A stretch of DNA of 61,607 bases from a virus. Taxonomy: Duplodnaviria > Caudoviricetes. The number at the start of each line of letters is the position of its first letter. The first letter of the stretch is position 1. The stretch spans positions 1 to 61,607 of the IMG/VR virus record IMGVR_UViG_3300010359_000002; one strand, given 5' to 3'. This document shows, piece after piece, positions 2,069 through 60,246 of this stretch. The translations under genes were made by a program, and so were the position numbers. A model generated the notes under the pieces. It had not been told where the DNA came from. It did not search any database and saw only the letters and a list, made by a program, of their open reading frames with translations.

Positions 2069-2082
2069 CCAACGCGCGTTCG
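2069..2082. promoter_or_regulatory. Operator-like palindrome CCAAC-GCGC-GTTCG (LexA-box-like)
   Basis: Intergenic, upstream of the scaffold gene; exact reverse complement of 7438-7451. Confidence 0.55.
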
Positions 2083-2164
2083 CTTCCGTTTCCTGCCGGA
2101 GGGCCCCGATCCCGCCCCAGACGGACGGTCGATCACGGCCGCACGACTGGAACGGAGTGAGGGC

Positions 2165-2704
2165 ATGGGTGACGAGCCCAACAAGCCAGCTCCGCGAACT
2201 CTGACGGAAGACCAGGCGTACGCCATCGTGGCCGATCGAGTTCTGCGGGAGACCGCCGAACTCACGGCCGAGAAGGAGCGCCTGACGGCAGAGAACGCCG
2301 AGCTGCGCAGCAAGCTCGATGTCGCCGAGGCCGGCCAGGCGACCGAGAAGGCTGCACGCGAGAAGGCCGAGCAGGATCTGAAGGACCACCAGGCCCAGGT
2401 CGAGGCCGAGAAGGTCGCGCTGGCCCGGACGTCGGAGCGCGAGGCCAAGGTCCGCGAGATCGCGGCCGCGCTGAAGGACGACTTCTACACCGACGAGCGC
2501 AAGCGCCGCTGGGCCGCGATGGACGACGAGGCGTTCAAGACCTACTGCGACGACCTCGCCGCCTCCGTCGGCGTTGCCGGCGCCGGCGGCCAGGTCCCGC
2601 GCGAGACCGCCATGAAGGGCGCACCGGTTCAGCCCCCCGGGGACACCGGCAACGCCGAGGCGCTGTTCGCGCTGACCCGAGGGGGTGCCCCGAATGGCCA
2701 GTGA
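2165..2704 (+). CDS. Scaffolding protein
   Basis: E/K/A-rich coiled coil, located between protease and capsid genes. Confidence 0.6.
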   Translation: MGDEPNKPAPRTLTEDQAYAIVADRVLRETAELTAEKERLTAENAELRSKLDVAEAGQATEKAAREKAEQDLKDHQAQVEAEKVALARTSEREAKVREIAAALKDDFYTDERKRRWAAMDDEAFKTYCDDLAASVGVAGAGGQVPRETAMKGAPVQPPGDTGNAEALFALTRGGAPNGQ

Positions 2705-3221
2705 CTACGGCTTCAACTTCGGGTTCCGCCGCAGCGACGAGAGCATGCGGTCGGGCACCGAGGGCCGACTCAAGGTGCCGGCCACCGGCACGTTCAAGCA
2801 GGGCGACCTGGTCACCTTCGACCCGGCCAACCCCGGCTACATCAAGAAGGCCGCCGCCAATTCCCCGATCGAGGCGGGATTCACGGGCCTCCTCATCCAG
2901 GAGGACGCCTGGAATATCCCGCTCAACGGGAACCAGGTCATCAACACGCAGGATCTCGACGTCGTCTGGAACGACGCCCTGTGCGCCATCTGGACCGGTG
3001 CCGGCCTGAAGATCTGGCTGAAGAACACCGCGGCCACGGCCAATCGCGGGCAGCGCGCCCGTGCCGCCGTCACCAAGTTCACGATGGGCACCCTCGTGAT
3101 CGGTGACCTCATCGCCTGGGACGGCTCCAAGTACGTCGAGACCGCCGACCCGACGGTGGCCGTGGGCCGCGTGACGCTGTCCAACGCCACCGACTACATC
3201 GAAGCCGTTCTGCTGAAGTGA
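2694..3221 (+). CDS. Capsid decoration / minor head protein
   Basis: ATG at 2694; ~175-aa beta-rich protein directly before the major capsid gene. Confidence 0.5.
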   Translation: MASDYGFNFGFRRSDESMRSGTEGRLKVPATGTFKQGDLVTFDPANPGYIKKAAANSPIEAGFTGLLIQEDAWNIPLNGNQVINTQDLDVVWNDALCAIWTGAGLKIWLKNTAATANRGQRARAAVTKFTMGTLVIGDLIAWDGSKYVETADPTVAVGRVTLSNATDYIEAVLLK

Positions 3222-3232
3222 GGAGGGACACC

Positions 3233-4213
3233 ATGACCACCACGGTTCTGAGCGACCTCCTCACGATGGGGGAGGGCAGCGGCTTCAAGCCGCGGAACAA
3301 GGCCGAGGCCGACGAGTACGCCAAGATCAAGGCGGCTCTGGACGCCGAGGCCAAGAAGAACTGGGACAACCCCGAGTGGCACCGCCAGCAGGCCGCCACC
3401 CTGAACTCCCAGCTGGACTACGGATTCGTCTTCGAGAACCTGTTCAGCAGCTACATCGAGACGATCAATGCTGCCGAGGACGAGAAGGTCTACCTGCGTG
3501 AGCGGACCGGCCTGAAGGTCTTCTACACCCACCGCGGCGGCTACATCGAGGAATCGCAGATCCAGACTCAGGACTGGGAGATTCCGCGGGACACCCTCGG
3601 ATTCCACGTCTCGGAGTTCAGCGACAAGCTGCGGTTCGGGTTCGCCGAGAGCATCCAGGGCATGGTGGCGCTGGGCCAGCGCCGCATGGAGGCCGAGACC
3701 AACCGGCGCATCTTCAACCTGCTCACCGAGGCCATCCCCAGCTCCAGCCCGTACTACGTGGATGCCAGCAGCGGCGGCCTGACCGGCGACGTCCTGGACG
3801 ACGCCATCACCGACGTCGAGGACGCCATCAAGCCCAACGGCTCGGCCGACGTCCCGGTGACGATCCTGGGTCGCGCCGCCGGCGTCAACGCCGTGACGAA
3901 GCTGGTCACCGGCGCCGGCATCTTCGACCCCGAGGCGGCCGCGGAGGTCCGCGCGAAGGGCCGCATCGGCACCTACAAGGGCGGCAACGTTGTCCGGATC
4001 CGCAACTACACCGACGAGTCCGGCGTCAGCTACATCCCGGCCAACGAGGTGTGGGTCTTCGGCGGCCAGGTCGGCAAGTTCGCCATCTACGGCGGGCCTC
4101 GCACCAAGCAGTGGGAGGAGAACACCACCGACTACGTGCACTACCGGCACCGCCGCGACATCGGTGGCCTCATCCACCACCCGGAGCAGGCGCGCCGCAT
4201 CCGGATCAGCTGA
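3233..4213 (+). CDS. Major capsid protein (HK97 fold)
   Basis: Strong RBS AGGAGG before ATG 3233; ~326 aa; 'GRIGTYKGGNVV' segment typical of HK97-fold capsids; synteny. Confidence 0.75.
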   Translation: MTTTVLSDLLTMGEGSGFKPRNKAEADEYAKIKAALDAEAKKNWDNPEWHRQQAATLNSQLDYGFVFENLFSSYIETINAAEDEKVYLRERTGLKVFYTHRGGYIEESQIQTQDWEIPRDTLGFHVSEFSDKLRFGFAESIQGMVALGQRRMEAETNRRIFNLLTEAIPSSSPYYVDASSGGLTGDVLDDAITDVEDAIKPNGSADVPVTILGRAAGVNAVTKLVTGAGIFDPEAAAEVRAKGRIGTYKGGNVVRIRNYTDESGVSYIPANEVWVFGGQVGKFAIYGGPRTKQWEENTTDYVHYRHRRDIGGLIHHPEQARRIRIS

Positions 4214-4226
4214 CCTCCACAGCTGA

Positions 4227-4390
4227 CCAGGGACCACCGGTTCGGCCGATCGTGCGGAACGGCCGGGCCGGTACCCTGGGAGCCTTGGGACTCCTTCCCG
4301 GTCGCGTGCAGCGACCCTCGGAGACCCGGGACGTCTTGGGAGAGACGTTGGCCCCACCACCTGGCTGCTCCAGGAGGTGGGGCCGCTCCC
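4227..4390 (+). ncRNA. Candidate structured RNA / 3' UTR after the capsid gene
   Basis: Long hairpin 4227-4279, then a multibranch region closed by GGGAGC (4278-83) / GCTCCC (4385-90) holding three hairpins. Confidence 0.4.
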
Positions 4391-4468
4391 GTTTCCCGGC
4401 CAACAACACGCTCTAGTGGGTTGAGATCGCCGGCGCTCCGACGTCATGGTCCAGACGAAGGAGGGCAC

Positions 4469-7437: not shown

Positions 7438-7451
7438 CGAACGCGCGTTGG
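7438..7451. promoter_or_regulatory. Operator-like palindrome CGAAC-GCGC-GTTGG (LexA-box-like)
   Basis: Intergenic, upstream of the major tail gene. Confidence 0.55.
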
Positions 7452-7497: not shown

Positions 7498-8721
7498 ATG
7501 GCCATCAAGTCGGGCAGCATCCTGCACGTCGGGAACGACACGGTGCTGGTGGAGCGCCTCCAGACCGGCGGTCCCGGCCAGCTGAACATCCCCAAGGACA
7601 AGATCTACGAGCTGGGCAACTACGAGTCGGTCGGGATCATCCGCGACACCCCCGATCTGCAGTACAGCCTGGAGAGCCTGGACGTCTCCTGCGACCTCGA
7701 AGCGCTCCTGACCCGCCAGGCGAACAGCGACCCATCCTTCGACCTGTCCACCTGCAAGCCGCTGGACCTGGTCACCCCCTGGGCACCCGGGAAGGACGCC
7801 GCCGCCCCGTACACCACCACCAAGTCGGTCGCGATCCCCTTCCTGTACCCCGAGCAGATCAGCTACCGCTTCGGGCTGAAGGACAACGCCCAGCAGACCG
7901 TCCAGCTGCGCGGCGACTCGATCTTCTACTGCCCCGGCGTCAGCTACGTGCAGACCTCCACCGCGGGGGTCGCCGCCGGCGGCACCATCGCCACCGCCCA
8001 CCCCGCCGGGGTCTACACCGACGCCAATGGCGCCCGCCGTGTCCTGTCGGTCGAGGTTGGCAACGACAAGCTGTCCTACGGGCAGGACTACACCGTCACC
8101 ACCGTCGGCTCCACCGACTTCGAGACGGCCACCGTCCACTTCGTCAACGCCGTGACCTCCGGCACCCAGATCCGGATCGTGTACTTCGCCAACACCACCC
8201 GCGACTACCCGCAGTCGGTGCACACCCTGCCGGCCGTCAAGCCGGCCGCCATCCGCGGCCGCGACATCCAGGTCTACGTGGGCGGCTACGACCCCGGCGA
8301 CATCCCCGGCTCCCAGGTCAATCGGTGGGGCACCGTCCAGTCGGCCAACGTCGACTGGCGCGTGCAGCTGCAGCCCGACGAGGAGTTCGGCAACTACGAG
8401 CGCTACGGCGCCGACTACGACACCCCCGAGGTCAGCGGCTCCATCACCCTCAAGCCGCGCAACCCCGACGAGTTCTTCGCCAAGCTGCGCCAGGCCACCG
8501 GCGTCTCCAACGCCGCCGAGGCCATCGGGCCCAACCTGGCCGCCGTCCTGCCGCTGGACATCGTCCTGCTCAACCCCGAGGACGGCACCCCGCTCAAGCG
8601 CCTGAACGTCGAGGACGCCCGCTTCACCGTCCCCGGCTTCGCTCCCCGCGTGCAGCAGAAGCTCACCGTGGAGATGCCGTTCGACTCCGACTCCGGCTCG
8701 CTCGTCGTCTACGCCGCCTGA
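7498..8721 (+). CDS. Major tail (tube) protein
   Basis: 407 aa, beta-rich, directly before the chaperones and tape measure. Confidence 0.7.
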   Translation: MAIKSGSILHVGNDTVLVERLQTGGPGQLNIPKDKIYELGNYESVGIIRDTPDLQYSLESLDVSCDLEALLTRQANSDPSFDLSTCKPLDLVTPWAPGKDAAAPYTTTKSVAIPFLYPEQISYRFGLKDNAQQTVQLRGDSIFYCPGVSYVQTSTAGVAAGGTIATAHPAGVYTDANGARRVLSVEVGNDKLSYGQDYTVTTVGSTDFETATVHFVNAVTSGTQIRIVYFANTTRDYPQSVHTLPAVKPAAIRGRDIQVYVGGYDPGDIPGSQVNRWGTVQSANVDWRVQLQPDEEFGNYERYGADYDTPEVSGSITLKPRNPDEFFAKLRQATGVSNAAEAIGPNLAAVLPLDIVLLNPEDGTPLKRLNVEDARFTVPGFAPRVQQKLTVEMPFDSDSGSLVVYAA

Positions 8722-15069: not shown

Positions 15070-15486
15070 ATGAGCGTTTACAAGCGCTGGGAACTCCACG
15101 ACTCCACCGGCGACGTCTACGTGTTCGTCCCCAACCCGAACAAGATGACCAGCCCATTCCCCACCCGCAACGTCACCATGCAGTCCACCACCGCGGTCGA
15201 CGGCAAGGTGCTGCTGTTCGAGGGGACCATGCAGCCGGTCCAATGGACCTTCGGCGGCGACATCCAGGACCACGTCCAGTACGAAGCGCTGCGGCAGTGG
15301 GTCTACGACCGGGTCGGACGCCGAGTCTGGCTCTACGACCACTACGGCCGGCGCATCACCTGCGTCCTGACCAAGTTCGAGCCCCAGCCGGTCCGGGCCA
15401 TCGGCAAGTACTGGCGCCACGAATACCAGATCACCGCCATCGTCACCAAGGTCGGCGCCCCCACCGTCGGTGAGGTCCCAGCATGA
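15070..15486 (+). CDS. Distal tail (Dit)-like minor tail protein
   Basis: 138 aa, beta-rich, immediately after the tape measure. Confidence 0.55.
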   Translation: MSVYKRWELHDSTGDVYVFVPNPNKMTSPFPTRNVTMQSTTAVDGKVLLFEGTMQPVQWTFGGDIQDHVQYEALRQWVYDRVGRRVWLYDHYGRRITCVLTKFEPQPVRAIGKYWRHEYQITAIVTKVGAPTVGEVPA

Positions 15487-40866: not shown

Positions 40867-40890
40867 CCGCCGTCTCCTTGACGAACCAGT

Positions 40891-40919: not shown

Positions 40920-40927
40920 ATCGAGCC

Positions 40928-44550: not shown

Positions 44551-45021
44551 CTAGGTGGTCAGTTCCTCGCGGTAGGGCACCACGCCGTGCATGTGGACCT
44601 CCAGCCGGCCCCACCACTCCATCGTCATTGCCCGCCGGCCCAGGAACCGCGGCCGCTGCTCAATCGGGCGCGTGGACTCGGTCTCCATCAGCCGGGCGTA
44701 GATCTCCGTCCAGCGCCGGCGCTTCACCAGCGGCCCGCAGGTCTCGCACGCACCCCAGTGGCCATCCGACTCGTAGCCGAACACTGGGTCAACGAAGCTG
44801 TCGGCGAGGATCAGCCACGGAGTAGGGCCGTCCCGGTCGCAGAAGTCGCAGCGCGAGGCGTTTGGCAGGGTGCCGCGTGGGACTGGTACCGGGATGTGGT
44901 CGTCGGCTTCCCAGGGCCGCAGGTGCCCGTAGCTCTCCTCGTAGGGAGGCTCTTGCTGGATGAACGCCTCCAGGGGGTAGCCGCACACTGCGCAGATCAT
45001 CTTGTTGCCGCCGCCGCTCAC
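44551..45021 (-). CDS. Zn-binding hypothetical protein
   Basis: CAVC, CDFC and W.ACETC motifs. Confidence 0.6.
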   Translation of the reverse strand: MSGGGNKMICAVCGYPLEAFIQQEPPYEESYGHLRPWEADDHIPVPVPRGTLPNASRCDFCDRDGPTPWLILADSFVDPVFGYESDGHWGACETCGPLVKRRRWTEIYARLMETESTRPIEQRPRFLGRRAMTMEWWGRLEVHMHGVVPYREELTT

Positions 45022-46004
45022 GATTCCATGCCCTTCCGTAGCTGCTCCACTTCGTCTAGAGCCACCTCAGCGGCGGTCCCGACCTCATCGAGCGCGGAAT
45101 CCAGCCAGTCGGAGTAGCGCGCGGCCAGCTGTAGCACGGTGTCGAACCGGCCCTTGATCGTTTCGTAGGCGATGCCGGAGACCCGGTCACGCTTCATCCG
45201 CAACGCCGCGGAGTCCCGCACCACCCGCTCCAGCTCGGTGACGGCCTCCAGCTCCACGGCCTGGATCAGCATGTCCCGGGCCTCCGGCAGGGCTACCAGC
45301 GGCAGCCGGTGCAGCTGGCAGCGCATCCGTACAGCCAGCTCGTGCAGCGCGGCCAGCTCCTCGGCGTGGGAGATGTGCACGAAGTAGGTGGACGGGTGGA
45401 GCATGACGGCCTCGAACTGGCCCAGGAGGTCACGGAACATGCCCCGGGCCTTGTTGCCGCCCAGATACTGCAGGGACCGCTTGTAGGCGTCGTCGATGCG
45501 GCGCAGCACCGCCTGGACCTGCGGGTGCTCCCCGGGCATCAAGGTGGAGGAGTTCATCGTGGTCCGCAGCCGCTCCGAGCCCGGGGTGATCCGCCCCTCC
45601 CGGACCGAGCCCCGGTAGAAGCGCAGCTCAGCCACCGTGTCGTGGCGCAGCTGCCGCTTGCCGGCGCGGACCTCCCGCACCAGCAGTCGGGTCTGCCCGT
45701 CCGGGTCCGGAGCCAGGGAGCGCACCAGGATCAGCCCCTGCTGCCCGCCGCCCAGGTCGTAGCTGTGTCGGTCCACCGACTTGGTCGCCACCCGGAATGC
45801 GTTCAGCGCGGTGCCCGGGTGCGGCAGGTGACGCGCGTCCAGTCCCAGCTCTAGCAGCCACCCGGCGATGGCCTGCCGGTCGTAGTCGGCCTCCTTCACG
45901 GTGAAGAACACCAGGTGTCCCAGCAGCATCGCTGCCGGGAGGGTGTCGTGCGTCTCGACGTAGGCGGACAGCTCCCGTTCCAGCTGTCCGCTGCCCTGAC
46001 TCAC
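45018..46004 (-). CDS. DUF6744/DUF3150-like protein
   Basis: 'LGHLVFFTV', 'AFR.AT', 'YFV' and a helical C-terminus; adjacent to the vWA gene. Confidence 0.55.
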   Translation of the reverse strand: MSQGSGQLERELSAYVETHDTLPAAMLLGHLVFFTVKEADYDRQAIAGWLLELGLDARHLPHPGTALNAFRVATKSVDRHSYDLGGGQQGLILVRSLAPDPDGQTRLLVREVRAGKRQLRHDTVAELRFYRGSVREGRITPGSERLRTTMNSSTLMPGEHPQVQAVLRRIDDAYKRSLQYLGGNKARGMFRDLLGQFEAVMLHPSTYFVHISHAEELAALHELAVRMRCQLHRLPLVALPEARDMLIQAVELEAVTELERVVRDSAALRMKRDRVSGIAYETIKGRFDTVLQLAARYSDWLDSALDEVGTAAEVALDEVEQLRKGMES

Positions 46005-47569
46005 AGAGCTGCCGGGAACAGCCCGGCCGCGGTGTCCACCTCGTCGCCCGGCAGTACACCGGTGATCGGGCGGACCGTGTCGCAGATCTGCTGCATGGTC
46101 GAGCCCTCGCCGGTCTCGTAGCCGATCAGCACCCCGTGCACCCGAACCCCCAGTCGGCGCCGGCGCTCCTGGAAGCTGGCTACCCACTCGTCGTCGAACC
46201 AGCTGTAGCCGTCGTCGGTGATGAAGACGATGTCGGCCTGGCCGAATCGGCGCTGATCGAAGCGGGTCGCGCACTCCTGTAGCGCCATGTTCAACGGCGG
46301 CTCGAAGCAGGTGCCGCCGCAGAAGAAGTGCTCCACCATCTCCACCGTCGCCTCGAAGGACGGGGTGCTCAGGTCGATGCAGTGCTGCTCGTAGCTGGAG
46401 GCGAAGCCGATGTAGTACATCGGCCGGTGCTGCAGCTGCGCCAACCGGGCCAGGGCCAGGGTGAGCGCCTTCGCCCACGCCTCCCGGGTGACCGAGCCGA
46501 TGTCAGGGATCTCCATCGACCCCGACTCGTCGCACACCACCACCAGCGGCCCCCGGCCGGTCCGCTCGGTGCCGCGGACCGCCCACACCGACAGGCGCTG
46601 CTCGACGTAGCGCAGCAGGAAGTCGGTCTCCAGCTCCGGTGTCGCCAGGGACACCATCTCGTCGTTGGTGAGCCGGCCCAGGTCGTCACCCAGCTCCACG
46701 CCCACGATCTCCGACGGGACACCGGCCACCTTCTTGCGCAGCGCGGCCTCCGCGGCCGAGCGCATCGCCCCGACCAGCGAGGCGAACTTGGCGATCCGGT
46801 TGTGCTGCAGCCGCTTCATCAGCGCTTCGCGCTCGGCGAAGCTCTTGCGCTGCAGGGTGCCTGGGTCGAGCCCGAACTGGTGGGCCATCGCCGTCTGGGC
46901 CTGCAGCTGGGCTGCAGACGCGTCCGCGCTGGCCCTCAGCATCAGCATGACCTGGCCGGCCGCGATGTCGGCGGCCTCGGTGGCCTGCTCCTCCAGTACC
47001 ACGAGGGTGCCGAGCAGCTCCTCCAGCGCCAGCTCGATGTCCGCCAATTCCTGCAGCTGGTCAGGGTCGGCCTCGTCCGGGTCCAGGTTCTCGATCAGTT
47101 CCCGGGCCCTGGCGGCCAGTTCCAGGGCCTGATCGAGCCGGTCCTGCAGCTCCTGGGCCATCTGCTGGGCCAGCTCCATCGCCTCGAACGCGGCCTCCAG
47201 CTCCGAGCGCATCGACAGCAGCGCGAGCATGGTGGCGTACAGGTGGTTGGCGGTGTGGTTGCGCAGGTTCAGCAGCTCGTCGTACTCCGAGAACCGGTGC
47301 ACCATCTGCCGGTTCGCGATGTAGGCCGGCGCCATCTCCCCGGCCGGGCGCACCCGCGGGTCACCCTTGAGCAGCAGCAGGAACACGTCCTGGAGGAACT
47401 CCGGTGCCCGGTCGTACTTGGCGGTGAAGTCCAGGTACAGATCCTGCAGCGACGGCATCTCCTTGCGCGCCTCGGTCCAGGACTGGACGTCGAAGCGGTC
47501 GTGCGCTACGGCGTGCTTGTGCTGCCGGCTGGCCAGCCTGGCCCAGGTGTCCCAGGTGTCGCTCATCAT
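46001..47569 (-). CDS. vWA-domain protein (ViaA-like)
   Basis: MIDAS DESGSM, GGT.F and DIVFITD motifs; G.ELG.DL.RL. Confidence 0.85.
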   Translation of the reverse strand: MMSDTWDTWARLASRQHKHAVAHDRFDVQSWTEARKEMPSLQDLYLDFTAKYDRAPEFLQDVFLLLLKGDPRVRPAGEMAPAYIANRQMVHRFSEYDELLNLRNHTANHLYATMLALLSMRSELEAAFEAMELAQQMAQELQDRLDQALELAARARELIENLDPDEADPDQLQELADIELALEELLGTLVVLEEQATEAADIAAGQVMLMLRASADASAAQLQAQTAMAHQFGLDPGTLQRKSFAEREALMKRLQHNRIAKFASLVGAMRSAAEAALRKKVAGVPSEIVGVELGDDLGRLTNDEMVSLATPELETDFLLRYVEQRLSVWAVRGTERTGRGPLVVVCDESGSMEIPDIGSVTREAWAKALTLALARLAQLQHRPMYYIGFASSYEQHCIDLSTPSFEATVEMVEHFFCGGTCFEPPLNMALQECATRFDQRRFGQADIVFITDDGYSWFDDEWVASFQERRRRLGVRVHGVLIGYETGEGSTMQQICDTVRPITGVLPGDEVDTAAGLFPAAL

Positions 47570-47907
47570 GCCTCCCTGGTGTGGTGGTTGAACCACTCCG
47601 GCCGACCGCAGTGGTGGCACTCCGGTTCCCGGCCCCCGACCGCCACCCCGAACCGGAACGGGTGCAGGTGCGCCAGGGCCTGGTAGATCGCGCAGTCCCT
47701 GCTGTGCCGGGCTTTCCAGCCGCACGCCTCGCACGGCGCGGCTGCCGCCTTCAGCTGGCCCACCGGCACCATGCCGTAGATCTCGGAGCCGTCGAACTGC
47801 ACGAAGGCGTTCATGGTGCCCGGCGAGTCCAGCAGGGTGCCGCAGTAGCTGGTGTCGAGCAGGGCACCGCGATACCCGTTGACCCGCGAGCCCTTGGCCA
47901 GCCTCAT
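47566..47907 (-). CDS. Hypothetical protein
   Basis: MRLAKGSRV...; C/H motifs. Confidence 0.5.
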   Translation of the reverse strand: MRLAKGSRVNGYRGALLDTSYCGTLLDSPGTMNAFVQFDGSEIYGMVPVGQLKAAAAPCEACGWKARHSRDCAIYQALAHLHPFRFGVAVGGREPECHHCGRPEWFNHHTREA

Positions 47908-48308
47908 TGCTTGACCTCGCGTGGCCGGATGTTCTCGGCCGAGAACCGCTTCACGTGACGTTTTCCGGTCCTGTTGCGGGCGTAGTCGACCTCGACCAGG
48001 GTGCGCCCCAGGTCGGTGACGCGGCCGGGCCGCCAGGCGCCGTAGCTGTGCACCTGCACGAACATCCCCACGGCGTAGGTGAACGTGTGCGACTTCAGCT
48101 CGGCGCCGTCCCACACGGACGATTCAGCCCGGGTGCCGACCAGGAACTCGTAGGTGCCGCGCAGGTAACGCTCGCCCTTCTCCAGCGTCCAGGTGGTCAG
48201 GGTCAGCCCCAGGTACAGCCGGTGTGGCCGCGCAGCGGTGTGCTCGGCCAGCTCCGTGGGAGACCCGCTGAAGTGGCAGCCCGCCCGCGGGCAGAACTTC
48301 TGCGTCAC
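47904..48308 (-). CDS. Hypothetical protein
   Basis: N-terminal C2H2-like and C-terminal SH3-like patterns. Confidence 0.55.
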   Translation of the reverse strand: MTQKFCPRAGCHFSGSPTELAEHTAARPHRLYLGLTLTTWTLEKGERYLRGTYEFLVGTRAESSVWDGAELKSHTFTYAVGMFVQVHSYGAWRPGRVTDLGRTLVEVDYARNRTGKRHVKRFSAENIRPREVKQ

Positions 48309-49336
48309 GACGCCAGCCCCCGCTCCTGGATCAGCTTGCCGGCGCGGCGCACGCCGTCCACCGTGAGCCGCCGGCCGCCGGACTCGATGGTGATGTAGCC
48401 GCGCTGGCTGAGCAGGTTCTCGGTGTGGTTCAGCGGGCCGGGCTCGCTGAGCATGCCGGCGATGGTGGCCAGGCTGGCCTTGCCCTCGCAGGAGACCAGC
48501 ACCAGCAGGTAGTCCTGGGCGACCCGGTTGAGCCCGTCGTGGCTGACGCCGGCCCAGGTCAGCGCGGTGTTGATGTCGAAGCCGGGCTCACCGTCGTAGT
48601 AGGTGTCCCGGTAGGCCACCAGCACCGAGGTCATGTCCCGGGGCGCGTTGTTCGCGGCCGTGGCCAGCGCGGCCAGGGTCTCAGCGCTGGGCATCGGGTA
48701 CAGCTCGGTGCCGAACTCCAGCTTCAGCGCGATCCCCTTGATGATCCGCAGCGCCTCCTCGTCGGTGTACGCCTCCAGCACCGGGCGGATCCGGAATCGA
48801 CCCAGGATCGTGGCCGGCAGCCGCTGGGCTTCGGTGGTGGCCCCGATCACGGTGACGTCCGGCATCGGCTCGTCGCCGGCCGCGGTGAGCAGCCGGCCGT
48901 CCTGCAGCAGGTGCAGCAGCCACTCCGCCTTGCCCTTGCCGCCCTGCACCAGCTGGTGGATCTCGTCGAGGAACAGCACATCCCCGTCCTGCATCCCGCG
49001 CAGCGCCGAGCGGGCCTCGTCCACGCTGACCGGGCCGGACAGCTCCATGAAGCCGACGCCGAGCAGGTAGGCGATCAGCCGGGCCAGGCTCGACTTGCCG
49101 ACCCCGCCCATCCCCGAGGCCAGCAGGATGTGATCCGGCCGGCTGCCGCGGGCCTTCGCCGAGGCGATGACGGCCTTGAGGTGCCGGATGGCGTTGTCCT
49201 GGCCGACGAACTGCTCCCAGCTGCGCGGGTACGGGCCATTGCCGAAGATGTCCTCGCCCCGCTTGGGGGAGGGCCCCTCGACAGCGACGGCCAGGCTGGC
49301 CGCGCGCAGCCGCTCTTGGATTCTCGGGTGGATCAT
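48305..49336 (-). CDS. ruvB: RuvB-like Holliday junction branch migration ATPase
   Basis: P.SW.QFVGQ, DHILL..G.GKS.LA, GDVLFLDEIH, TVIGATT, RF, Y...E, and C-terminal E..L...G.I...GR motifs. Confidence 0.8.
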   Translation of the reverse strand: MIHPRIQERLRAASLAVAVEGPSPKRGEDIFGNGPYPRSWEQFVGQDNAIRHLKAVIASAKARGSRPDHILLASGMGGVGKSSLARLIAYLLGVGFMELSGPVSVDEARSALRGMQDGDVLFLDEIHQLVQGGKGKAEWLLHLLQDGRLLTAAGDEPMPDVTVIGATTEAQRLPATILGRFRIRPVLEAYTDEEALRIIKGIALKLEFGTELYPMPSAETLAALATAANNAPRDMTSVLVAYRDTYYDGEPGFDINTALTWAGVSHDGLNRVAQDYLLVLVSCEGKASLATIAGMLSEPGPLNHTENLLSQRGYITIESGGRRLTVDGVRRAGKLIQERGLAS

Positions 49337-50517
49337 GCGGTTCCCTCCTCCAGGGATGACGGGACACCCAGGGCGGTGTCCAGCTGGTGACGTAGCCGGT
49401 CGACGGCGGTGGTCAGGTCGTGCACGTGCTCTGCGGCGGCCGGGCCGTGGGTGGTGGTCAGGCCGGCGATCTCGCGGCGGATCTTGTCCATCTTGGCGTC
49501 GCACTCGGCGTCGAAGCCGGCCAGCTTGGCCAGCGACTCCCCGGCCGCGACCCGCAGAGACAGCTCGGAGCCGATCTCGCGGATCGTGTCCATCACCGCG
49601 AGCGCGTCCTTGGCGGCCGGGTCGGCCACCTCCGCCCGGATCCGCCGGATGGGCTCCAGCTGCTCCGGCCGGTCCCACAGCGTGAACTCCAGCGCCCGCA
49701 GGTCGATCGGCTCCACCTCGCTGGTGCCGTTCAGGAACGCCCGCGCCTGCAGCACGCGCATGCTCTGGCGCCAGCGCCGGTCGGAGGCGATCACGCCGGC
49801 CTCGCGCAGCTTGGAGCGGATGTGGATGACGTGCTCAACCACCACGTCGGGGATCTTGATCTCCGGCACCACCTCCTCGATCACGTACCGCAGCTCATCG
49901 AAGGGGACCGTGGTGTAGGTGGCCGGCCGGTCGCCGGCCGTCAGCAGCCGGCCGAACTGCACCGGGGAGTCGATGTAGTCGACCACCACCCGCACCAGCA
50001 GCCGGTCCCACAGCGCGGCCGCATCGTCGGACTCCCCGGCCGGCAGCTCGTTGCTGGCGGTGAACGCCGTGAACAGCGGGATCGGGTGCACCGAGCCCAC
50101 GCCGTCCAGCACCTCGTGCCGCACCCGTTCGTTCAGTGCGGCGAGCAGGTCGTGGCCCAGCGTGGCGGACATCTTCCCGATCTCGTCCAGGAAGCAGAAC
50201 ACGGCGGTGAGCAGGTAGCCGTCGATCTTGCGCTCGTAGTCGCCGGTCTCGCGCAGCCTCGGCAGGTTGATCGGGCCCAGCACCGCGGCGTCAGAACGAG
50301 TGCGGGACAGCCCCATCGCGAAGTACGGGGCCCCGGTGATCCGCTTGACCAGCTCGTTGATGACGTCGGTCTTGCCGGCGCCGACCGGGCCGTGCGCGTA
50401 CAGGTGCTGTTTGGCCAGCACCGCGTACAGCGCCGCGTCGATGAGCTGCTGACGCTCGAAGAACACGCCGTTCAGCTCGGTGCGGATGGCGCGCAGCCTG
50501 GCCGCTACGTCGATCAC
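49333..50517 (-). CDS. MoxR/RavA-family AAA+ ATPase
   Basis: GPVGAGKT, FLDEIGK, LNER, ASNELP, ALWDRL and SDRRW motifs. Confidence 0.85.
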   Translation of the reverse strand: MIDVAARLRAIRTELNGVFFERQQLIDAALYAVLAKQHLYAHGPVGAGKTDVINELVKRITGAPYFAMGLSRTRSDAAVLGPINLPRLRETGDYERKIDGYLLTAVFCFLDEIGKMSATLGHDLLAALNERVRHEVLDGVGSVHPIPLFTAFTASNELPAGESDDAAALWDRLLVRVVVDYIDSPVQFGRLLTAGDRPATYTTVPFDELRYVIEEVVPEIKIPDVVVEHVIHIRSKLREAGVIASDRRWRQSMRVLQARAFLNGTSEVEPIDLRALEFTLWDRPEQLEPIRRIRAEVADPAAKDALAVMDTIREIGSELSLRVAAGESLAKLAGFDAECDAKMDKIRREIAGLTTTHGPAAAEHVHDLTTAVDRLRHQLDTALGVPSSLEEGTA

Positions 50518-50527
50518 GTGATCTCCT

Positions 50528-51457
50528 TCACACGAGCGGGATCTCCGAGAGTTGGGCGATCCCGCAGTTGTCGAAGTTCAGGTCTGTGCGCAGGCCCAGG
50601 AACACCGGCTCACGCAGCCCATCCTTGGTGCGACCCATGACAGAGACGTCCACGATGGCGTAGCCACCGTCCTCGAGAATGTCCGCCAGCTGCCGCATCT
50701 CCATGTCGTTGAAGCCGGTGCCGACCTCGCCGACCAGCACCGGCTCCGAGCCCCTCAGCAGCGCCACCGTGATGTTGCGGAACGGCCGGCCGTTGCCGGT
50801 CAGCGCCCACGAGCTGGTGGCGTGCATCCGCACAGCGATGACGGTCAGGGTGTAGCGGTGCTTGAACTTCAGCCACTGCCGGGTCCGTGACCCCGGCATG
50901 TAGTAGCCGCGCGGGTCCTTGGCGATGACGCCCTCGTCGCCGGCGCGGCGGGTGCGCTCGAACAGCTCCATCCCGCCGGACTCGACCAGCTGGACTGCCG
51001 GCACGTTGAGCATCTCGACCGTGGCGGCCAGCCGGGTGCGCCGGTCCACCTGCCTCATGCGCGGCAGGTCCAGGTCGTCGTCCAGGGCGTCGAACGCCTG
51101 CACCCAGGCCGGGCGGGCCATCGCGGCGGCCATGATGGCCCGCGGCCGGGTGGTGTTGAGCCGGCCGGTCAGTGCCGACAGCGGCAACGCAGGGTTGATG
51201 CACTCCAGTTCGCCATCGAGCAGGAACTGGCGCGGCCGGTCCGCGCTGAGGATGGACTGGACCACCTCGGGGAACGCGGCCGCGACGTCGCGGCCGGTCC
51301 GGGTCCACAGCTGCACGACGTCGCCCCGGCGCTTGACGATGACGCGCACGCCGTCGATCTTCGGCTCGAAGCTCCAACCGTCGCTGGCCAGCGCCTCCAG
51401 GGTCTGCAAGGGCCCGGGGACGCTGGCCAGCATCGGCTTGGGAACGATGCTCTTCAC
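50528..51457 (-). CDS. ATP-dependent DNA ligase (LigD/LigC-like ligase + OB domain)
   Basis: PMLA, EPKIDGVR (KxDG), LDGEL, AFD, EGVIAK, WLKFK, VGTGF and LREPVF.GLR motifs. Confidence 0.9.
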   Translation of the reverse strand: MKSIVPKPMLASVPGPLQTLEALASDGWSFEPKIDGVRVIVKRRGDVVQLWTRTGRDVAAAFPEVVQSILSADRPRQFLLDGELECINPALPLSALTGRLNTTRPRAIMAAAMARPAWVQAFDALDDDLDLPRMRQVDRRTRLAATVEMLNVPAVQLVESGGMELFERTRRAGDEGVIAKDPRGYYMPGSRTRQWLKFKHRYTLTVIAVRMHATSSWALTGNGRPFRNITVALLRGSEPVLVGEVGTGFNDMEMRQLADILEDGGYAIVDVSVMGRTKDGLREPVFLGLRTDLNFDNCGIAQLSEIPLV

Positions 51458-51726
51458 AGCACGGCGTTCATCTGCTGGAGGGTGACGCCCTGCACGGCGC
51501 TGAACGCCTGCGCCAGCAGCACCTCCAGCATCTCCGGGGTGAACGCCGGGTTGTGGTCCACCACCAGAAGCACCCGGCTGCGGATCAGGGCCACGTTGTG
51601 CAGCGGGTTGGACCGGGCCAGCCCGCAGTGCGGGTACATGCACGTGGGCAGGCCGTCCCCGGGCGGCTCGAAGGTGTGCACCGGCAGGTTCGGCCGGGGC
51701 GGCGGGTGCGGGTCGACGTCCAGCAT
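51454..51726 (-). CDS. Hypothetical protein
   Basis: Coupled between Ku and ligase; H.F...C..C...H. Confidence 0.55.
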   Translation of the reverse strand: MLDVDPHPPPRPNLPVHTFEPPGDGLPTCMYPHCGLARSNPLHNVALIRSRVLLVVDHNPAFTPEMLEVLLAQAFSAVQGVTLQQMNAVL

Positions 51727-52526
51727 CAGGCCGCCTTGCGCCGGCGGGTCGGCTTGACGGCCTCGGCCATCTGCTGCAGCGCCGCCAGAGCGTGGTCCAC
51801 GCTGGGCTGCGCCGGCGTCCCGTTGGCCACCACGTCGGCGATGGCCGCCTCGGAGGTGTCGGCGTAGGCCGCCGGGTCGTACCGGGTGATGAGCGTCTTG
51901 CGGCCCTGCTTGAGCACCTGCTCAGCCAGCCCCAGCAGCTGGGTGTCCGGCTCGGCCGGCACAAGCGGCGCGGCCTTGACCCGGTCGGCCGGCAACCGCT
52001 CCTGCATCACCAGCACGTCGCCGCGGGTGGTCACCCGGAACATGCCGACCTTGCTGCGCGGTGCCCAGCGGGCGCAGAAGGCGACCTCCGGGTGGTTGCC
52101 CAGCAGGGCCGCCATCACCGCGTAGCCGCGCTCCTGGCCGGGCGCCGGCAGCAGGTAGTAGAGCTTGTCACCGGTGATCGTCTCGACCTCGACCTCCGGG
52201 GACGGGTGCCCGGCCAGCTCGATGCGCTTCTTGAACGGCTCCGCGTTGGCCGCGATGGCCGCGTTGGTCTCCTGCGACAGCAGGATGAGCCCTCCGGCGA
52301 CTTCCCGCGCGCTGTGGGTGGAGCCGCGGGGGACCTCGCCGCAGGCCGGGCACTGGATCGTGGTGTGGATCTGCTGGGGGTCGTGGGCCTCGGTGGCGTC
52401 ACCGGTGCAGACGGTGACGTTCTTGGGCGCCGGCTCCAGCGCGCCGGCCACGTTCACGGTGACGTTGAACAGGCCGAACGCGAGGCTGACGTTGCTCGAC
52501 AACGTCCGCAAGGTGGCAGCGGACAC
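51726..52526 (-). CDS. ku: Ku-like DNA end-binding protein
   Basis: RBS AAGGAG; 'LAFGLFNV.V', 'CPACGEV', 'YYLLP....Y', 'YDP..Y.D' and 'D.ALAAL' match the prokaryotic Ku pattern. Confidence 0.8.
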   Translation of the reverse strand: MSAATLRTLSSNVSLAFGLFNVTVNVAGALEPAPKNVTVCTGDATEAHDPQQIHTTIQCPACGEVPRGSTHSAREVAGGLILLSQETNAAIAANAEPFKKRIELAGHPSPEVEVETITGDKLYYLLPAPGQERGYAVMAALLGNHPEVAFCARWAPRSKVGMFRVTTRGDVLVMQERLPADRVKAAPLVPAEPDTQLLGLAEQVLKQGRKTLITRYDPAAYADTSEAAIADVVANGTPAQPSVDHALAALQQMAEAVKPTRRRKAA

Positions 52527-52586: not shown

Positions 52587-52600
52587 TGAACGCGCGTTCG
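52587..52600. promoter_or_regulatory. SOS-box-like palindrome TGAAC-GCGC-GTTCG
   Basis: Perfect GAAC-N4-GTTC about 60 bp upstream of ku. Confidence 0.6.
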
Positions 52601-52630: not shown

Positions 52631-52807
52631 CTATTCGTCGGCCATGCGCGCCTCGAACGCATTGAGCGCTTCACGGGTATAGCTGATGTTGTTGCCCTCC
52701 CGGACGTAGTCGATCCGGCCGGCCTTGCGAGCACGCTGGAGCGTCCGCTTGGAGATCAACAGCTGATCGGCAGCTTCCTGCTCGGTGAACTCGTCCTTCA
52801 CGGGCAC
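52631..52807 (-). CDS. Excisionase/MerR-type HTH DNA-binding protein (58 aa; not in the ORF track)
   Basis: RBS GGGAGG; 'FTEQEAADQLLISKRTLQRARKAGRI' HTH_17-type pattern. Confidence 0.75.
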   Translation of the reverse strand: MPVKDEFTEQEAADQLLISKRTLQRARKAGRIDYVREGNNISYTREALNAFEARMADE

Positions 52808-52863: not shown

Positions 52864-52893
52864 AGCTTTGCCCTGGTGACGCGCGTTCGTCAA
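52864..52893 (-). promoter_or_regulatory. Putative promoter (-35 TTGACG) overlapped by a degenerate AAC-N4-GTT box
   Basis: Minus strand TTGACG-aacgcgcgtcaccaggg-CAAAGCT; box at 52876-52889. Confidence 0.4.
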
Positions 52894-57097: not shown

Positions 57098-57126
57098 AGG
57101 CAATCCGCGCCTTGACCACTCACCCG
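57098..57126 (-). promoter_or_regulatory. Bipartite early motif, copy A (CGGGTGAGTG-N12-ATTGCC)
   Basis: Same elements and spacing as the copies at 59143, 59982, 60087 and 60215. Confidence 0.6.
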
Positions 57127-57137
57127 AAGGGCTCACA

Positions 57138-57186: not shown

Positions 57187-58248
57187 TCAGGCGTTGGTGA
57201 GGATGCGGCCCAGCAGCTCCATCGCCGCGTCGTCCGCCTTGCCCTGCTCACCCTTGACGGCCGACATCATGTTGCGCTCGGCCCGGGTGCCCCCACGCAC
57301 GATGCCTTCGTGGTGGTCGTAGGTGTTGACGGCCTGCAGCACCCCGAAGCTGGTGCCCTTCCAGGGACTGACCCGCTGGTCGTGGTTCCACAGCTTCTTG
57401 AGCGTGTCCTGCTTGTTGATGGCCATCGTCAGCGCGCGGCCCTCCTTCTTCTTGCCGTCCTCGGTGACCGGCACGTACGCCTCCAGGAAGGCGAGCCACT
57501 GCTTGTCGGTGACCGTGGTGGCGCACAGCTCGGCCACCTGCGCGGTGAAGTCGTCCGCGGCCTGGTGGATGATGCCGAGCGCCTGCCGGGCGCTGGCCAG
57601 CTTGAAGCCGGAGTTCTTGGTGTGCTTGGCCTTGAACTGCTGCCCACGCTCACCCCGTGCGGCCTCCAGCGTGTTGTCGCAGACCACCACCGTGATCGTG
57701 CGCTTGAAGGTGGTGGCGATCGAGCCGTCGAAGCTGGTGCAGCCCAGCAGGTTGGGCCGGAAGGAGACGCCCTCGGGTGTGGTGATGGTGTCGGGCACCT
57801 CCACCTGCACCCAGGCGACGGCGCCCTGTCGCAGCAGACCGGCCGACCCGATGCTCAGGTCGTCGTCCAGCAGGTTCGCGACGGTGTCCAGCAGCCACTG
57901 CTTGTACTGGTGCGGCTGGTAGCCGTCCTTGAACATCCCCATGACGTGGTTGTTGTCGTCACGGGCGATGGCCTGCCGGTCCAACTGCACGGCCCACTTC
58001 ATCGGGGTGCCGTCCTCGGCCAGGTGGGTCATGTCCTCGAAGGTGGCCGGGACCTCGACCGCGACGCGACGGCTGGTGGCGGCCCAGTCGAAGAGCCGGC
58101 GGGTGACGTGCTCCACCGGGATGGCGCCCGGGTAGTGGTTGGACTCGGCGCCCTGCTCCTGGGCCTTGTAGTGCCAGGCGTGACCGCGCTTGTCGGTGAA
58201 GCCGATCAGGGTGTTGGTGTTCAGGGTGCTGATGGTCTCGAAGGTCAT
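57187..58248 (-). CDS. DUF932 (phage/plasmid-like TIGR03299) protein
   Basis: AWH, Y.PHQ, SAGLL..G, SFDGS, VVCDNTL, KHT and W.GT..G..QAV..Y.HH motifs. Confidence 0.8.
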   Translation of the reverse strand: MTFETISTLNTNTLIGFTDKRGHAWHYKAQEQGAESNHYPGAIPVEHVTRRLFDWAATSRRVAVEVPATFEDMTHLAEDGTPMKWAVQLDRQAIARDDNNHVMGMFKDGYQPHQYKQWLLDTVANLLDDDLSIGSAGLLRQGAVAWVQVEVPDTITTPEGVSFRPNLLGCTSFDGSIATTFKRTITVVVCDNTLEAARGERGQQFKAKHTKNSGFKLASARQALGIIHQAADDFTAQVAELCATTVTDKQWLAFLEAYVPVTEDGKKKEGRALTMAINKQDTLKKLWNHDQRVSPWKGTSFGVLQAVNTYDHHEGIVRGGTRAERNMMSAVKGEQGKADDAAMELLGRILTNA

Positions 58249-58295: not shown

Positions 58296-58333
58296 GCGGT
58301 GCTACGGGCGGTGCGCGGTGCTACGGGCGGTGC
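58296..58333. repeat. Perfect 19-bp tandem duplication GCGGTGCTACGGGCGGTGC x2
   Basis: Read directly from the sequence. Confidence 0.85.
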
Positions 58334-58823: not shown

Positions 58824-59110
58824 CAGCACTCCTCCAGTGTCGGTTCGGTGGCGTCCCACAGCTGGGCCCAGCCCTCGACCGGGCCACGCTCGCCGTGGTG
58901 CTCCACGTACTTGTACAGCGCCAGCAGCGGCCGGCGGGCGCGGCCGGTGTCGAGGCTGCGCACGTCGCGGCTGATCTCGAACTTGGTGCCGGCCGGGTCC
59001 GTGATGGCCCCGCTGGAAGCCAGCGAGTACAGCGCGGACGCCTGGCCACCGTGCCAGTCCGCGGCGATCGTGCGCGCCTGTGCGTCGCTGATGACGTTGA
59101 GGTACTTCAC
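58823..59110 (-). CDS. Hypothetical protein
   Basis: 'AR.IA..WHGGQ.S.LY..ASSG' family pattern. Confidence 0.6.
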   Translation of the reverse strand: MKYLNVISDAQARTIAADWHGGQASALYSLASSGAITDPAGTKFEISRDVRSLDTGRARRPLLALYKYVEHHGERGPVEGWAQLWDATEPTLEEC

Positions 59111-59140
59111 CGGGACCTCCGTGGTGGTTGTTGCTAGGGA

Positions 59141-59174
59141 AGGCAAGCGAGCGCTGGGGCACTCACTCGCTCGG
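59141..59174 (-). promoter_or_regulatory. Bipartite early motif, copy B
   Basis: + strand AGGCAAG-N12-CACTCACTCGCTCGG, upstream of the 59110 start. Confidence 0.55.
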
Positions 59175-59732
59175 CGTAGCGGCGGCCTGCGCGGCCTCGA
59201 CCTGCGCGTACGCCTGCTCGGCGTAGCAGGTGGCGTCCTCCAGGAGGCCGGCCTCGTGCGCCACGTTGTTGAGGTACCGCTCCTGCTCCCCGCGCAGGAA
59301 GTGCGGCCGCGTGTAGCGCGTGCCCGTGCCGTTGGAGAACGCGGGGAAGAACGACCCGCGGTTGAACAGGCAGTCGATCACCCACGCTTTCTCGTGCGGG
59401 TAGCGACTGACCGAAGCGCGGATGCCCTGCCAGGTCACAGTGGCGGTGACGCACTGCTTGCCGGACAGGTTGAGCCCGTCTTCGACCTTGAGGTCAGCGA
59501 CCTCCAGCGGCTGTGCGTACTGCTCCAGCAGCTTCACAGCGGCCTTGCGCGTGTCGAGGCCGTGCTCGTCCAGGACCGTGCCATCCGCGGCCGTGGGGAT
59601 CCACAGCGGCTTGCTGGAGAGGCTGACGCTCATCCCGCGGATGTGCAGCCCGTCCGGCTCGTGCTTGACCACCTGGCCGATGACCTTGCCGTCCAGGGTC
59701 ACCGTGCCGTCGGGCCCGATCTTGCTGGGCAT
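59163..59732 (-). CDS. Hypothetical protein
   Basis: RBS GGAGGT; 189 aa. Confidence 0.65.
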   Translation of the reverse strand: MPSKIGPDGTVTLDGKVIGQVVKHEPDGLHIRGMSVSLSSKPLWIPTAADGTVLDEHGLDTRKAAVKLLEQYAQPLEVADLKVEDGLNLSGKQCVTATVTWQGIRASVSRYPHEKAWVIDCLFNRGSFFPAFSNGTGTRYTRPHFLRGEQERYLNNVAHEAGLLEDATCYAEQAYAQVEAAQAAATPSE

Positions 59733-59787
59733 TGGATACCTCCGAAAACGCTGGGGCCAACCAGGAGATGTAGCGGGCCGCTGATGG

Positions 59788-59971
59788 GACGGCCGCAGAT
59801 GTGCCCGCTGGACGGTTGCGTCGGGGAGTTGATCAGGCTCCTGCTCTCACGATCTTCATCACCAGCTCAAGGGCGCCGCTTACCCGCACCGCGGGCCCAA
59901 GCAACCTTGAGCGTGTGACTCCTGTGAGCCGACTTTCTGTGATCCGTCCAGCAGGCACATCTGCGGCCGTC
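59788..59971 (-). ncRNA. Candidate rod-like structured RNA (~185 nt)
   Basis: 28-bp terminal stem whose single mismatch is a G-U pair on the minus strand, plus six nested helices and a side hairpin. Confidence 0.55.
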
Positions 59972-59972
59972 A

Positions 59973-60246
59973 CTAGGAAGGGCAATCGGGCCGGCAGGCA
60001 CTCACCCGTTCGGCCCAGCGGGCCCGGAGCGTGCCGACCGGTCCGCGCTTTCCGTGCGGTCCGTCGTGCGCTTGCACTTTAGAAGGGCAATCGAGCACGC
60101 GGGCACTCACCCGCTTGGCTCAACCGGCGTTCAACGCGCGTTCCGCGCGGTCCGTCCGGCTGGGCGCCCGGCCCGATGTTCCGGCCGGCCGTGCTTGCCG
60201 CTCTGCTAGGGAGGGCAATCGAGCCGGCCGGCACTCACCCGTTCGG
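59973..60246 (-). promoter_or_regulatory. Three tandem copies (C, D, E) of the bipartite motif
   Basis: + strand AGGGCAATC..CACTCACCCG at 59980, 60084 and 60212; GCAAT-to-CACTC spacing is 12 nt in each. Confidence 0.65.

Follow-up and report, generated by a model that had tools for sequence, protein, structure and literature searches.

A single short palindrome, AACG-NN-CGTT, recurs through a 61,607-nucleotide stretch of DNA from a tailed virus (IMG/VR record IMGVR_UViG_3300010359_000002, Duplodnaviria, Caudoviricetes; hereafter the window, which is the entire record, linear and about 69% G+C) and through the genomes of nearly all of its relatives, in which it is written into coding sequence by the choice of synonymous codons. 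Relatives of the window's phage encode a protein of 76-93 amino acids with the fold of the LexA winged-helix DNA-binding domain and neither a cleavage nor a dimerisation domain (the LexA-head protein). We propose that the palindromes are docking sites of a phage-encoded, dimer-forming protein, not of host LexA, and that the LexA-head protein is the candidate binder. It would bind at operon junctions and, in relatives, every 1-5 kb within genes, and would serve chiefly as a repressor or roadblock at many sites, silencing or timing transcription of the phage without RecA-mediated cleavage. We give this reading, a phage LexA-head protein silencing or blocking transcription at many AACG-NN-CGTT sites, a rough probability of 0.4.

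The element came to attention through an inspection of the letters alone (the sequence-only reading), which had listed AAC-N4-GTT palindromes in the intergenic control regions and interpreted them as a network of LexA operators. Every listed sequence is present, at 2069, 7438, 28368, 28436, 40933, 52587, 52876, 60120 and 60131, and that at 7438 is the exact reverse complement of that at 2069. Counted against shuffled sequence, AAC-N4-GTT gives 13 matches in the window where 2.93 are expected, and none of 100 shuffles reaches 13. The enrichment is real, but the word that carries it is narrower: AACG-NN-CGTT occurs in 10 exact copies against 0.39 expected (200 first-order Markov simulations, maximum 2), ranks second among the over-represented 4-Nx-4 palindromes of the window, and for its AACG/CGTT half-sites is enriched at a spacing of 2 alone. 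The one-mismatch variants (10 seen, 12.8 expected) form a class that is not enriched, and the listed sequences at 40933, 52876 and 60120 belong to it. The word is often extended to CAACG-NN-CGTTG. Its exact copies in the window, followed by the one-mismatch variants, are given below without strand.

2071-2080: exact, AACGCGCGTT; 90 nucleotides 5′ of the scaffold gene start (2165), a placement conserved across the lineage.
7440-7449: exact, AACGCGCGTT; 54 nucleotides 5′ of a gene for a 407-residue protein (7498-8721; major tail or tail tube protein by position).
16649-16658: exact, AACGTTCGTT; within the tail gene 15483-17765.
27354-27363: exact, AACGCGCGTT; in the 3′ end of the open reading frame (ORF) 27106-27435, 78 nucleotides 5′ of the endolysin start at 27432.
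28370-28379: exact, AACGGCCGTT; first member of an inverted pair (68 bp apart) in the gap that separates the lysis genes from the exonuclease/Sak4-like operon.
28438-28447: exact, AACGGCCGTT; second of the inverted pair, 89 nucleotides 5′ of the exonuclease start (28531).
35736-35745: exact, AACGCGCGTT; within the Cys-rich ORF 35580-35954 (frame read from the sequence).
43619-43628: exact, AACGCTCGTT; within the 5′ part of the HNH ORF 43343-43675 (minus strand).
52589-52598: exact, AACGCGCGTT; in the gap separating HTH_17 from ku, the sole window site with GAAC/GTTC on both halves.
60133-60142: exact, AACGCGCGTT; non-coding, ahead of the leftward early genes and directly adjoining copy 2 of a repeated promoter-like element.
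40935-40944: one mismatch, AACGCGTGTT; just past the overlapping divergent start codons at 40927-40930, in a class without statistical support.
52878-52887: one mismatch, GACGCGCGTT; upstream of the HTH_17 gene, in a class without statistical support.
60122-60131: one mismatch, AACCGGCGTT; 11 nucleotides before the exact site at 60133.

Split by a curated gene map, non-coding DNA makes up 7.2% of the bases of the window yet holds six of the 10 exact copies (binomial P = 2.3e-5): one each upstream of the scaffold, major tail and ku genes, two upstream of the exonuclease operon, and one in the early non-coding region. A location in intergenic control regions, as first described, is borne out for these six, and four exact copies within ORFs (16649, 27354, 35736 and 43619) had been overlooked. 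The flanks of the copies at 28370 and 28438, read from the sequence, make a longer inverted repeat, and the placement of the site at 7440-7449 is not conserved among the relatives examined. An RNA hairpin or terminator was rejected as the source of the palindrome: one specific sequence is enriched and no covarying stems are seen, and terminator scans at the palindrome sites found none.

Two further repeats deserve mention in their own right. The sequence CGCCGGCG occurs 47 times in the window against 12.3 expected from 4-mer frequencies, the most over-represented palindrome by that measure, an excess that may reflect codon pairs. Upstream of the leftward genes, an element of about 45 nucleotides is present in four full copies (59132-59176, 59971-60015, 60076-60120 and 60204-60248) and two partial ones (cores at 61513-61526 and 57117-57130); it reads ...AGGGCAATCG...GGCACTCACCCGTTCGG on the plus strand, with no sigma-70 consensus, and may constitute an early-promoter array of unusual type, the palindrome pair at 60122/60133 abutting copy 2.

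The word extends well beyond this record. Relatives, referred to below by G and L handles, were gathered by alignment of the major capsid protein (MCP), which yielded 28 viral contigs, with one more from a single-protein scan and one contig from a metagenome-assembled genome (MAG); copies were counted as AACGNNCGTT over whole records, with the reversed word as control. AACG-NN-CGTT occurs at 0.16-0.78 copies per kb in 27 of the 29 related virus records, against 0-2 matches for the control word, with 55 copies in G002 (70 kb), 43 in G003 (86 kb), 23 in G024 (37 kb), 19 in G011 (42 kb) and 19-23 in G016, G022 and G028 (records of 104-131 kb). It is the top 4-N2-4 palindrome in all six genomes tested, again with spacing 2 alone enriched. 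The motif-poor relatives include G001 (136 kb, 0 copies) and G012 (135 kb, 4 copies); a Rhodothermales MAG holds 15 copies against 12 of the control word in 3.7 Mb, none of them in its MCP locus. Because the motif-poor members (L005, L126, L131 and L213) are scattered over the MCP tree and the motif reaches its deepest branch (L152/L153), the distribution suggests that AACG-NN-CGTT is an old trait of the lineage that was lost several times. A search of the viral contigs with the exact 14-mer CCAACGCGCGTTCG gave at least 120 single chance matches and was uninformative.

The two large motif-poor genomes have palindromes of their own. In G012 (L181-L187), TGAC-N5-GTCA occurs 23 times against 2.4 expected and CTGA-N7-TCAG 18 times against 1.45, with a combined reading of CTGAC-N5-GTCAG, and in G001 (L174-L180) TTCA-N5-TGAA occurs 11 times against 0.72. 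G012 also encodes a sigma-70-like protein beside its terminase and portal genes, and an 888-residue ORF before the portal gene of G001 (L176:12532-15198), with Hint and LAGLIDADG/intein matches, is probably the large terminase.

What sets the word apart is its abundance inside genes, which accommodate 38 of the 55 copies in G002 and 30 of the 43 in G003. Synonymous-codon shuffles within each genome produce far fewer coding copies than are seen: 0.65 against 38 in G002, 0.52 against 30 in G003, and 0.12 against 3 in the window. The frame xxA ACG NNC GTT, in which the outer A and T fall at wobble positions, is used by 119 of 172 coding copies, and the copies are evenly distributed along genes with no bias toward their ends, at intervals of about 1-5 kb in relatives. 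Selection on the motif acts at the DNA level. The deficit in the synonymous shuffles, together with the even genic spread, therefore rules out a peptide-motif artefact and equally a purely promoter-bound element. A regulatory word can, in other words, be strongly imposed on coding sequence through synonymous codons.

The sequence-only reading had assigned the sites to host LexA, which would bind the palindromes and silence the prophage, with DNA damage directly inducing every operon. Several observations speak for this. The AAC-N4-GTT core is common to the palindrome and the actinobacterial SOS box; of the 10 window sites, four differ from CGAAC-N4-GTTCG at a single base, and that at 52587 carries GAAC/GTTC in each half; GIL01 is an example of a phage that exploits host LexA; and the hosts are probably Actinomycetota, because G002 encodes WhiB and because a Pedococcus genome and a MAG of the Nocardioidaceae contain LexA-head homologues. 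The bases around and within the core argue otherwise. The LexA motif of Streptomyces venezuelae is tCGAAC-N4-GNNCGa, with a free N4 spacer (PMC9380542), whereas the inner G and C of AACG-NN-CGTT are invariant. The window contains no exact CGAAC-N4-GTTCG and four one-mismatch matches, every one of them an AACG..CGTT site; with up to two mismatches there are 44 matches against 34.0 expected, a number reached by 5 of 100 shuffles, so that the canonical box is not enriched. CGAAC is found in 4 of the 20 half-sites of the window and GAAC on both halves in 1 of the 10 sites. Across 11 genomes (524 half-sites) the base before AAC is most commonly C (267), followed by G (147), A (66) and T (44); GAAC stands on both halves in just 25 of 262 sites, and G022 has G at that position in none of 42 half-sites. 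Nor is the distribution that of SOS boxes, with up to 55 copies per genome, mostly genic, and no enrichment in the one host-type relative whose genome was examined (3.7 Mb with 15 copies, the control word having 12). The site is thus like the actinobacterial SOS box in being a palindrome with an AAC-N4-GTT core, which in the SOS box is read by the winged helix of the LexA family, and unlike it in its unconserved CGAAC flank, its fixed inner G..C and its many genic copies (PMC9380542). On this evidence, control of every operon by host LexA is improbable. More generally, where SOS-box-like words are met in high-GC phages, the flanking bases and the presence of a phage LexA head should be checked before control by host LexA is assumed.

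The sequence-only reading had also offered a phage regulator with LexA-like specificity as an alternative, and it is this proposal, still unproven, that comparison with the relatives favours. A Pfam scan of G002 (66 of its 94 called proteins) returned a 77-residue protein matching LexA_DNA_bind, along with WhiB, a tyrosine integrase and three HTH_17 proteins. Homologues of 76-93 residues are found in G003, G004, G005, G011, G024 and G028, and G016 carries a 173-residue form fused to an Xre-type helix-turn-helix (HTH) domain (HTH_31/HTH_3). The Pfam family PF01726 (LexA_DNA_bind) is matched by seven of eight family members (best E 6.5e-17), and the family profile searched against the PDB finds LexA (8s7g, E 2e-14; 3k2z, 4e-13). 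An AlphaFold model of the protein, with a predicted local distance difference test score (pLDDT) of 81.4, aligns with the DNA-bound LexA head 3jso_A at a template-modelling (TM) score of 0.79 and a root-mean-square deviation of 0.9 Å over 63 columns (Foldseek), and ranks 1-11 of that search are all LexA. Peptidase_S24 is absent from the 17 Pfam families matched by any member, seven of the eight members being only 76-93 residues long.

The distribution of the gene follows that of the motif in part. It is present in 13 of the 30 records, all of them motif-rich, and a profile search found it in neither of the two near-complete motif-poor genomes, G001 and G012. The MCP tree places G012 (L131) as sister to G016 (L136), and G016 possesses LexA-head gene and motif alike. 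With the exception of one tail-protein family, the LexA-head family is the only one found in at least four motif-rich and in no motif-poor genomes. All eight genomes that were mapped have the gene on the strand of the portal, 5.6-9.7 kb ahead of the portal start, and TANNNT-like hexamers, read from the sequence, precede it, which makes it look like a gene under its own host-type promoter. Homologues are further found in the Pedococcus bigeumensis genome (70% identity, 'LexA family protein') and in the Nocardioidaceae MAG. LexA-family heads of the Gram-positive or actinobacterial type read AAC-N4-GTT cores (PMC9380542). Because of this, and because these genomes encode a head of their own, we take the palindromes to be putative docking sites of the LexA-head protein, which would bind AACG-NN-CGTT; the window's phage, too, would encode such a protein.

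Whether the gene could be seen in the window depends on where the record ends. CheckV puts its completeness at 74%, which makes it a fragment, and the first gene (2-1237, plus strand; identified by Pfam scan and by alignment to full-length portals) is a portal gene that is 5′-open at the contig end. Its product lacks about 125-140 N-terminal residues relative to the full-length portals of relatives (547-597 residues), residues 24-27 of the window's portal aligning to residues 149-164 of these; the record is therefore cut inside the portal gene. A terminase was not found in the window by a Pfam scan of 95 ORFs. By synteny with the relatives, the terminase genes and the place of the LexA-head gene are located beyond the left end of the window. 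The absence of any recognisable CI repressor, which the sequence-only reading had remarked upon, is correct insofar as one HTH protein (HTH_17) appears among the 95 ORFs, and is attributable to the truncation of the contig.

Several observations weigh against the LexA-head protein as the reader of the sites. No LexA-type domain is present in the window: PF01726 has no match there, the hidden Markov model of the family has none over six frames, and the highest probability that hhalign assigns to the family among 75 window proteins is 8.2%. Because the syntenic place lies beyond the cut left end, this does not amount to absence from the phage, and the link between the LexA-head protein and the window's phage rests on the missing stretch. 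G022 (84% complete) and G030 are motif-rich, and no LexA-head gene was found in either. Among the nine records at least 70% complete, the association of gene and motif (5/2 versus 0/2) gives a Fisher P of 0.17, an association that relatedness inflates. A motif copy lies within 700 nucleotides upstream of three of eight LexA-head genes, and autoregulation is accordingly not evident. Mycobacteriophage Cosmo (Cluster V, KP027195) encodes a LexA-like head, gp13, and has no palindrome network. A head without the LexA dimerisation module would need another way to pair on a palindrome. A scan of viral contigs with the LexA-head family recovered solely records already in the MCP set, which affords no independent test outside the MCP lineage, and a metagenome scan with the portal protein for upstream DNA returned two contigs, both starting at or near the portal. 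As a separate observation on Cosmo, it has a single near-canonical box, CGAACGACCGTTCG, at L215:42034, in the intergenic region from which genes 59 and 60 diverge.

Some of these points would suit a different reader altogether. Another factor of phage or host might recognise the word, perhaps for purposes other than transcription, such as genome organisation or compaction, protection from nucleases or defence systems, or control of recombination or replication, with the LexA-head gene a coincidental companion. The uniform genic spacing of about 1-5 kb fits such a role, as do the presence of the motif in G022, in which the LexA-head gene was not found, and the lack of significance of the gene-motif association (Fisher P = 0.17); the motif-poor G012 and G001 carry other enriched palindromes, and the lineage may swap pairs of site and binder. 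Set against this, no other family tracks the division into motif-rich and motif-poor genomes, one tail protein excepted, and neither the window (95 ORFs) nor G002 (66 of 94 called proteins) showed a ParB-type domain when scanned with Pfam. A LexA-type core, AAC-N4-GTT, in genomes that encode a LexA-type head would be an unlikely coincidence, and the window sites cluster at operon junctions. We regard a different reader as doubtful.

The binder suggested by the sequence-only reading was the only HTH protein found in the window, encoded between the exact site at 52589 and the variant at 52878:

52631-52807, minus strand: HTH_17 protein (MerR/excisionase-like), 58 residues, from Pfam and PHROGs; no co-variation with the motif.

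HTH_17 is absent from the motif-rich G003, G004, G016 and G022, and three copies are present in the motif-poor G012, a distribution that led us to reject it as the binder. PHROGs groups the protein with recombination directionality factors, and it has no BLASTP match (E of 1e-5 or better) in G002-G006. That it binds the palindromes is very improbable.

The site upstream of the scaffold gene is conserved in place. In G000, G002, G003, G005, G011 and G024 a palindrome precedes the scaffold start by 77-93 nucleotides, and of 29 related loci 19 carry one at the corresponding position. The closest relative, L214 (92% MCP identity), keeps both the site and its downstream flank, and the next closest, L213, has 0 copies in 11 kb. 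In 13 of the 16 relatives shown (L127-L153), GCCGAT, in its fuller form TGCCGATR, follows 13-36 nucleotides downstream of this palindrome; the counterpart in the window (2095-2102) reads GCCGGAG. Considered by itself, GCCGATR is enriched in plus-strand non-coding DNA (16 of 22 occurrences in G022, 12 of 48 in G016 and 11 of 33 in G003); it occurs in the motif-poor G001 as well, and TGCCGATR may be a lineage-specific late-promoter element. The palindrome itself was rejected as a promoter element, being rarely paired with GCCGATR except at the scaffold site.

This arrangement raises the possibility that the LexA-head protein is a late-gene activator in the manner of GIL01 gp6, binding across the -35 region of late promoters of a non-canonical kind (scaffold/capsid, tail and lysis), with the genic copies secondary. 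GIL01 gp6 activates the late promoter P3 from a palindrome over the -35 element, a sigma-70 consensus promoter was not found at the site-bearing junctions, and the LexA-head gene lies just upstream of the terminase and the structural block, all of which, with the conserved GCCGAT element, accord with activation. An activator gives no reason for 30-38 coding copies spread evenly along genes; the spacing of palindrome and GCCGAT varies (13, 14, 17, 20, 22, 25-26 and 36 nucleotides) and so does not keep to one helical face; window sites also precede the early, replication and ku operons; and GCCGATR is seldom paired with the palindrome away from the scaffold site. Activation of this kind is unlikely. 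Because tens of copies are imposed on coding sequence, we prefer a multi-site silencer or roadblock, or a global regulator, to an activator of single promoters.

A broader interpretation can be built upon the silencer. An actinobacterial temperate phage lineage may keep an uncleavable 'mini-LexA' and its own SOS-box-like word, set by codon choice at intervals of 1-5 kb and densest at operon junctions, as a genome-wide lattice of silencing or insulation, in place of a CI-type repressor, uncoupling the prophage from the host RecA/LexA switch or competing with it, and sub-lineages that lost the pair may have swapped to other palindromes. We put this forward tentatively, as a possibility that falls well short of an even chance. 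The pairing is directly testable, a 70%-identical LexA-head gene being available in a named species, Pedococcus bigeumensis.

The layout of the window was drawn from a codon-usage gene call, the Pfam scan of 95 ORFs and a PHROGs scan of 72. A rightward arm (2-36881) carries structural, lysis and replication genes, among them the portal, MCP, tape measure, an endolysin with a peptidoglycan-binding domain, a PD-(D/E)XK exonuclease, a Sak4-like ATPase and a primase-helicase. A large serine integrase gene (36970-38523, minus strand) adjoins a tRNA-Arg gene (anticodon ACG; 38898-38974, plus strand), which lies within a 950-nucleotide gap beside it. The leftward arm, from 59732 down to 43343, encodes a RuvB-like ATPase, DUF6744, VWA and MoxR proteins, an ATP-dependent ligase, Ku and the 58-residue HTH_17 protein; the module at 45018-52526 (minus strand; DUF6744, VWA, RuvB-like AAA, MoxR AAA, ATP-dependent DNA ligase and Ku) is common to all seven near-complete motif-rich relatives, and most of its genes occur in motif-poor relatives as well. 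Between the arms, at 40914-40930, ORFs 40159-40929 (minus) and 40928-41368 (plus) diverge from start codons with two bases in common, and a TACAGT hexamer 8 nucleotides 5′ of the plus-strand ATG at 40928 suggests a leaderless start; the protein of 40159-40929, with three homologues, no domain and no relatives in viral contigs, was dropped as a switch candidate. A 19-nucleotide unit stands in perfect tandem duplication at 58296-58333, in the gap upstream of the DUF932 gene (57187-58248). Among cultured phages, no megablast match to the first 20 kb of the window was found; the nearest cultured MCP, that of GX15bay (39.5% identity), belongs to a phage without AACG-NN-CGTT.

The components of the proposed system are already known separately, genome-wide repeats from actinobacteriophages and a phage LexA head from GIL01 gp6; their combination, in which a LexA-head gene accompanies an SOS-box-like word that codon choice embeds throughout the genome, was not found described in the open-access literature searched. 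GIL01, a tectivirus of Bacillus thuringiensis, uses host LexA boxes with its own gp7 and gp6. Repression there is by host LexA together with gp7; the gp6 protein, a LexA homologue in truncated form, recognises a palindrome centred at -43.5 that covers the -35 element of the late promoter P3, which it activates (PMC6182141). In both systems a temperate phage pairs a LexA DNA-binding head without a cleavage domain with a palindrome distinct from the host SOS box, though binding is here proposed; the gp6 palindrome lies next to a late promoter, as the scaffold-upstream site here may do, and the gp6 model maps to LexA 3k2z and 3jso as does the LexA-head model here (PMC6182141). Unlike GIL01, a 15-kb tectivirus with one mapped site (GaCACAC GTGTGaC at -43.5), the present lineage has 10-55 copies, mostly genic, per siphovirus-type genome of 60-130 kb; activation is demonstrated for gp6 (PMC6182141), and the sign of regulation here is a proposal. 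The window itself has no LexA-head gene, the contig being cut. Host-type LexA boxes, moreover, are not enriched here, and no gp7 was identified, no search for one having been made. Should the proposal hold, GIL01 gp6 with its one site, so far the only truncated LexA known to be encoded by a phage, would be joined by a genome-wide network in an uncultured lineage.

The Cluster O mycobacteriophages, such as Corndog, offer the closest likeness among repeats. Their 17-bp dyad repeat TGTTCGGNNNCCGAACA occurs in 34 copies in Corndog, 14 between ORFs and 10 near ORF ends, and, like AACG-NN-CGTT, is an inverted repeat whose arms are invariant and whose centre varies, scattered in many copies over the genome of an actinobacterial phage at intergenic as well as genic positions (PMC4351075). 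It differs in its form, 7-N3-7 rather than 4-N2-4, and in the bias toward ORF ends, which the 38 genic copies among the 55 of G002 do not exhibit; no LexA-type binder is proposed in the available part of that report (PMC4351075). A copy number of at least 30, as in Cluster O, is reached by G002 (55) and G003 (43), and the window has 10. Corndog encodes Ku, as does the window's phage group. If the LexA-head protein does bind AACG-NN-CGTT, it would provide a candidate binder for a class of phage-wide palindromes with mostly unassigned readers, of which the Cluster O repeats are an example.

Two further systems illustrate how one regulator may govern a mobile genome from many sites. KorB, a ParB-family global regulator of the IncP plasmid RK2, acts through 12 OB operators, and has in common with the present case a single palindrome repeated round a mobile genome as docking sites for a single global regulator, established for KorB and proposed here; it is unlike it in that Pfam scans of the window and G002 turned up no ParB-type domain. 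In the Cluster A mycobacteriophages, the L5 repressor gp71 silences the prophage by blocking transcription at many points, through about 30 genome-wide stoperators. These are asymmetric 13-mers oriented with transcription and lying mostly in short intergenic gaps, and the repressor is an ordinary HTH protein unrelated to LexA, whereas the sites described here are perfect palindromes without orientation and in relatives are mostly genic (38 of 55 in G002, 30 of 43 in G003). The two share many copies of one site throughout the genome (10 in the window, 16-55 in relatives), and silencing by one repressor at many points is the working model that we favour for the AACG-NN-CGTT network.

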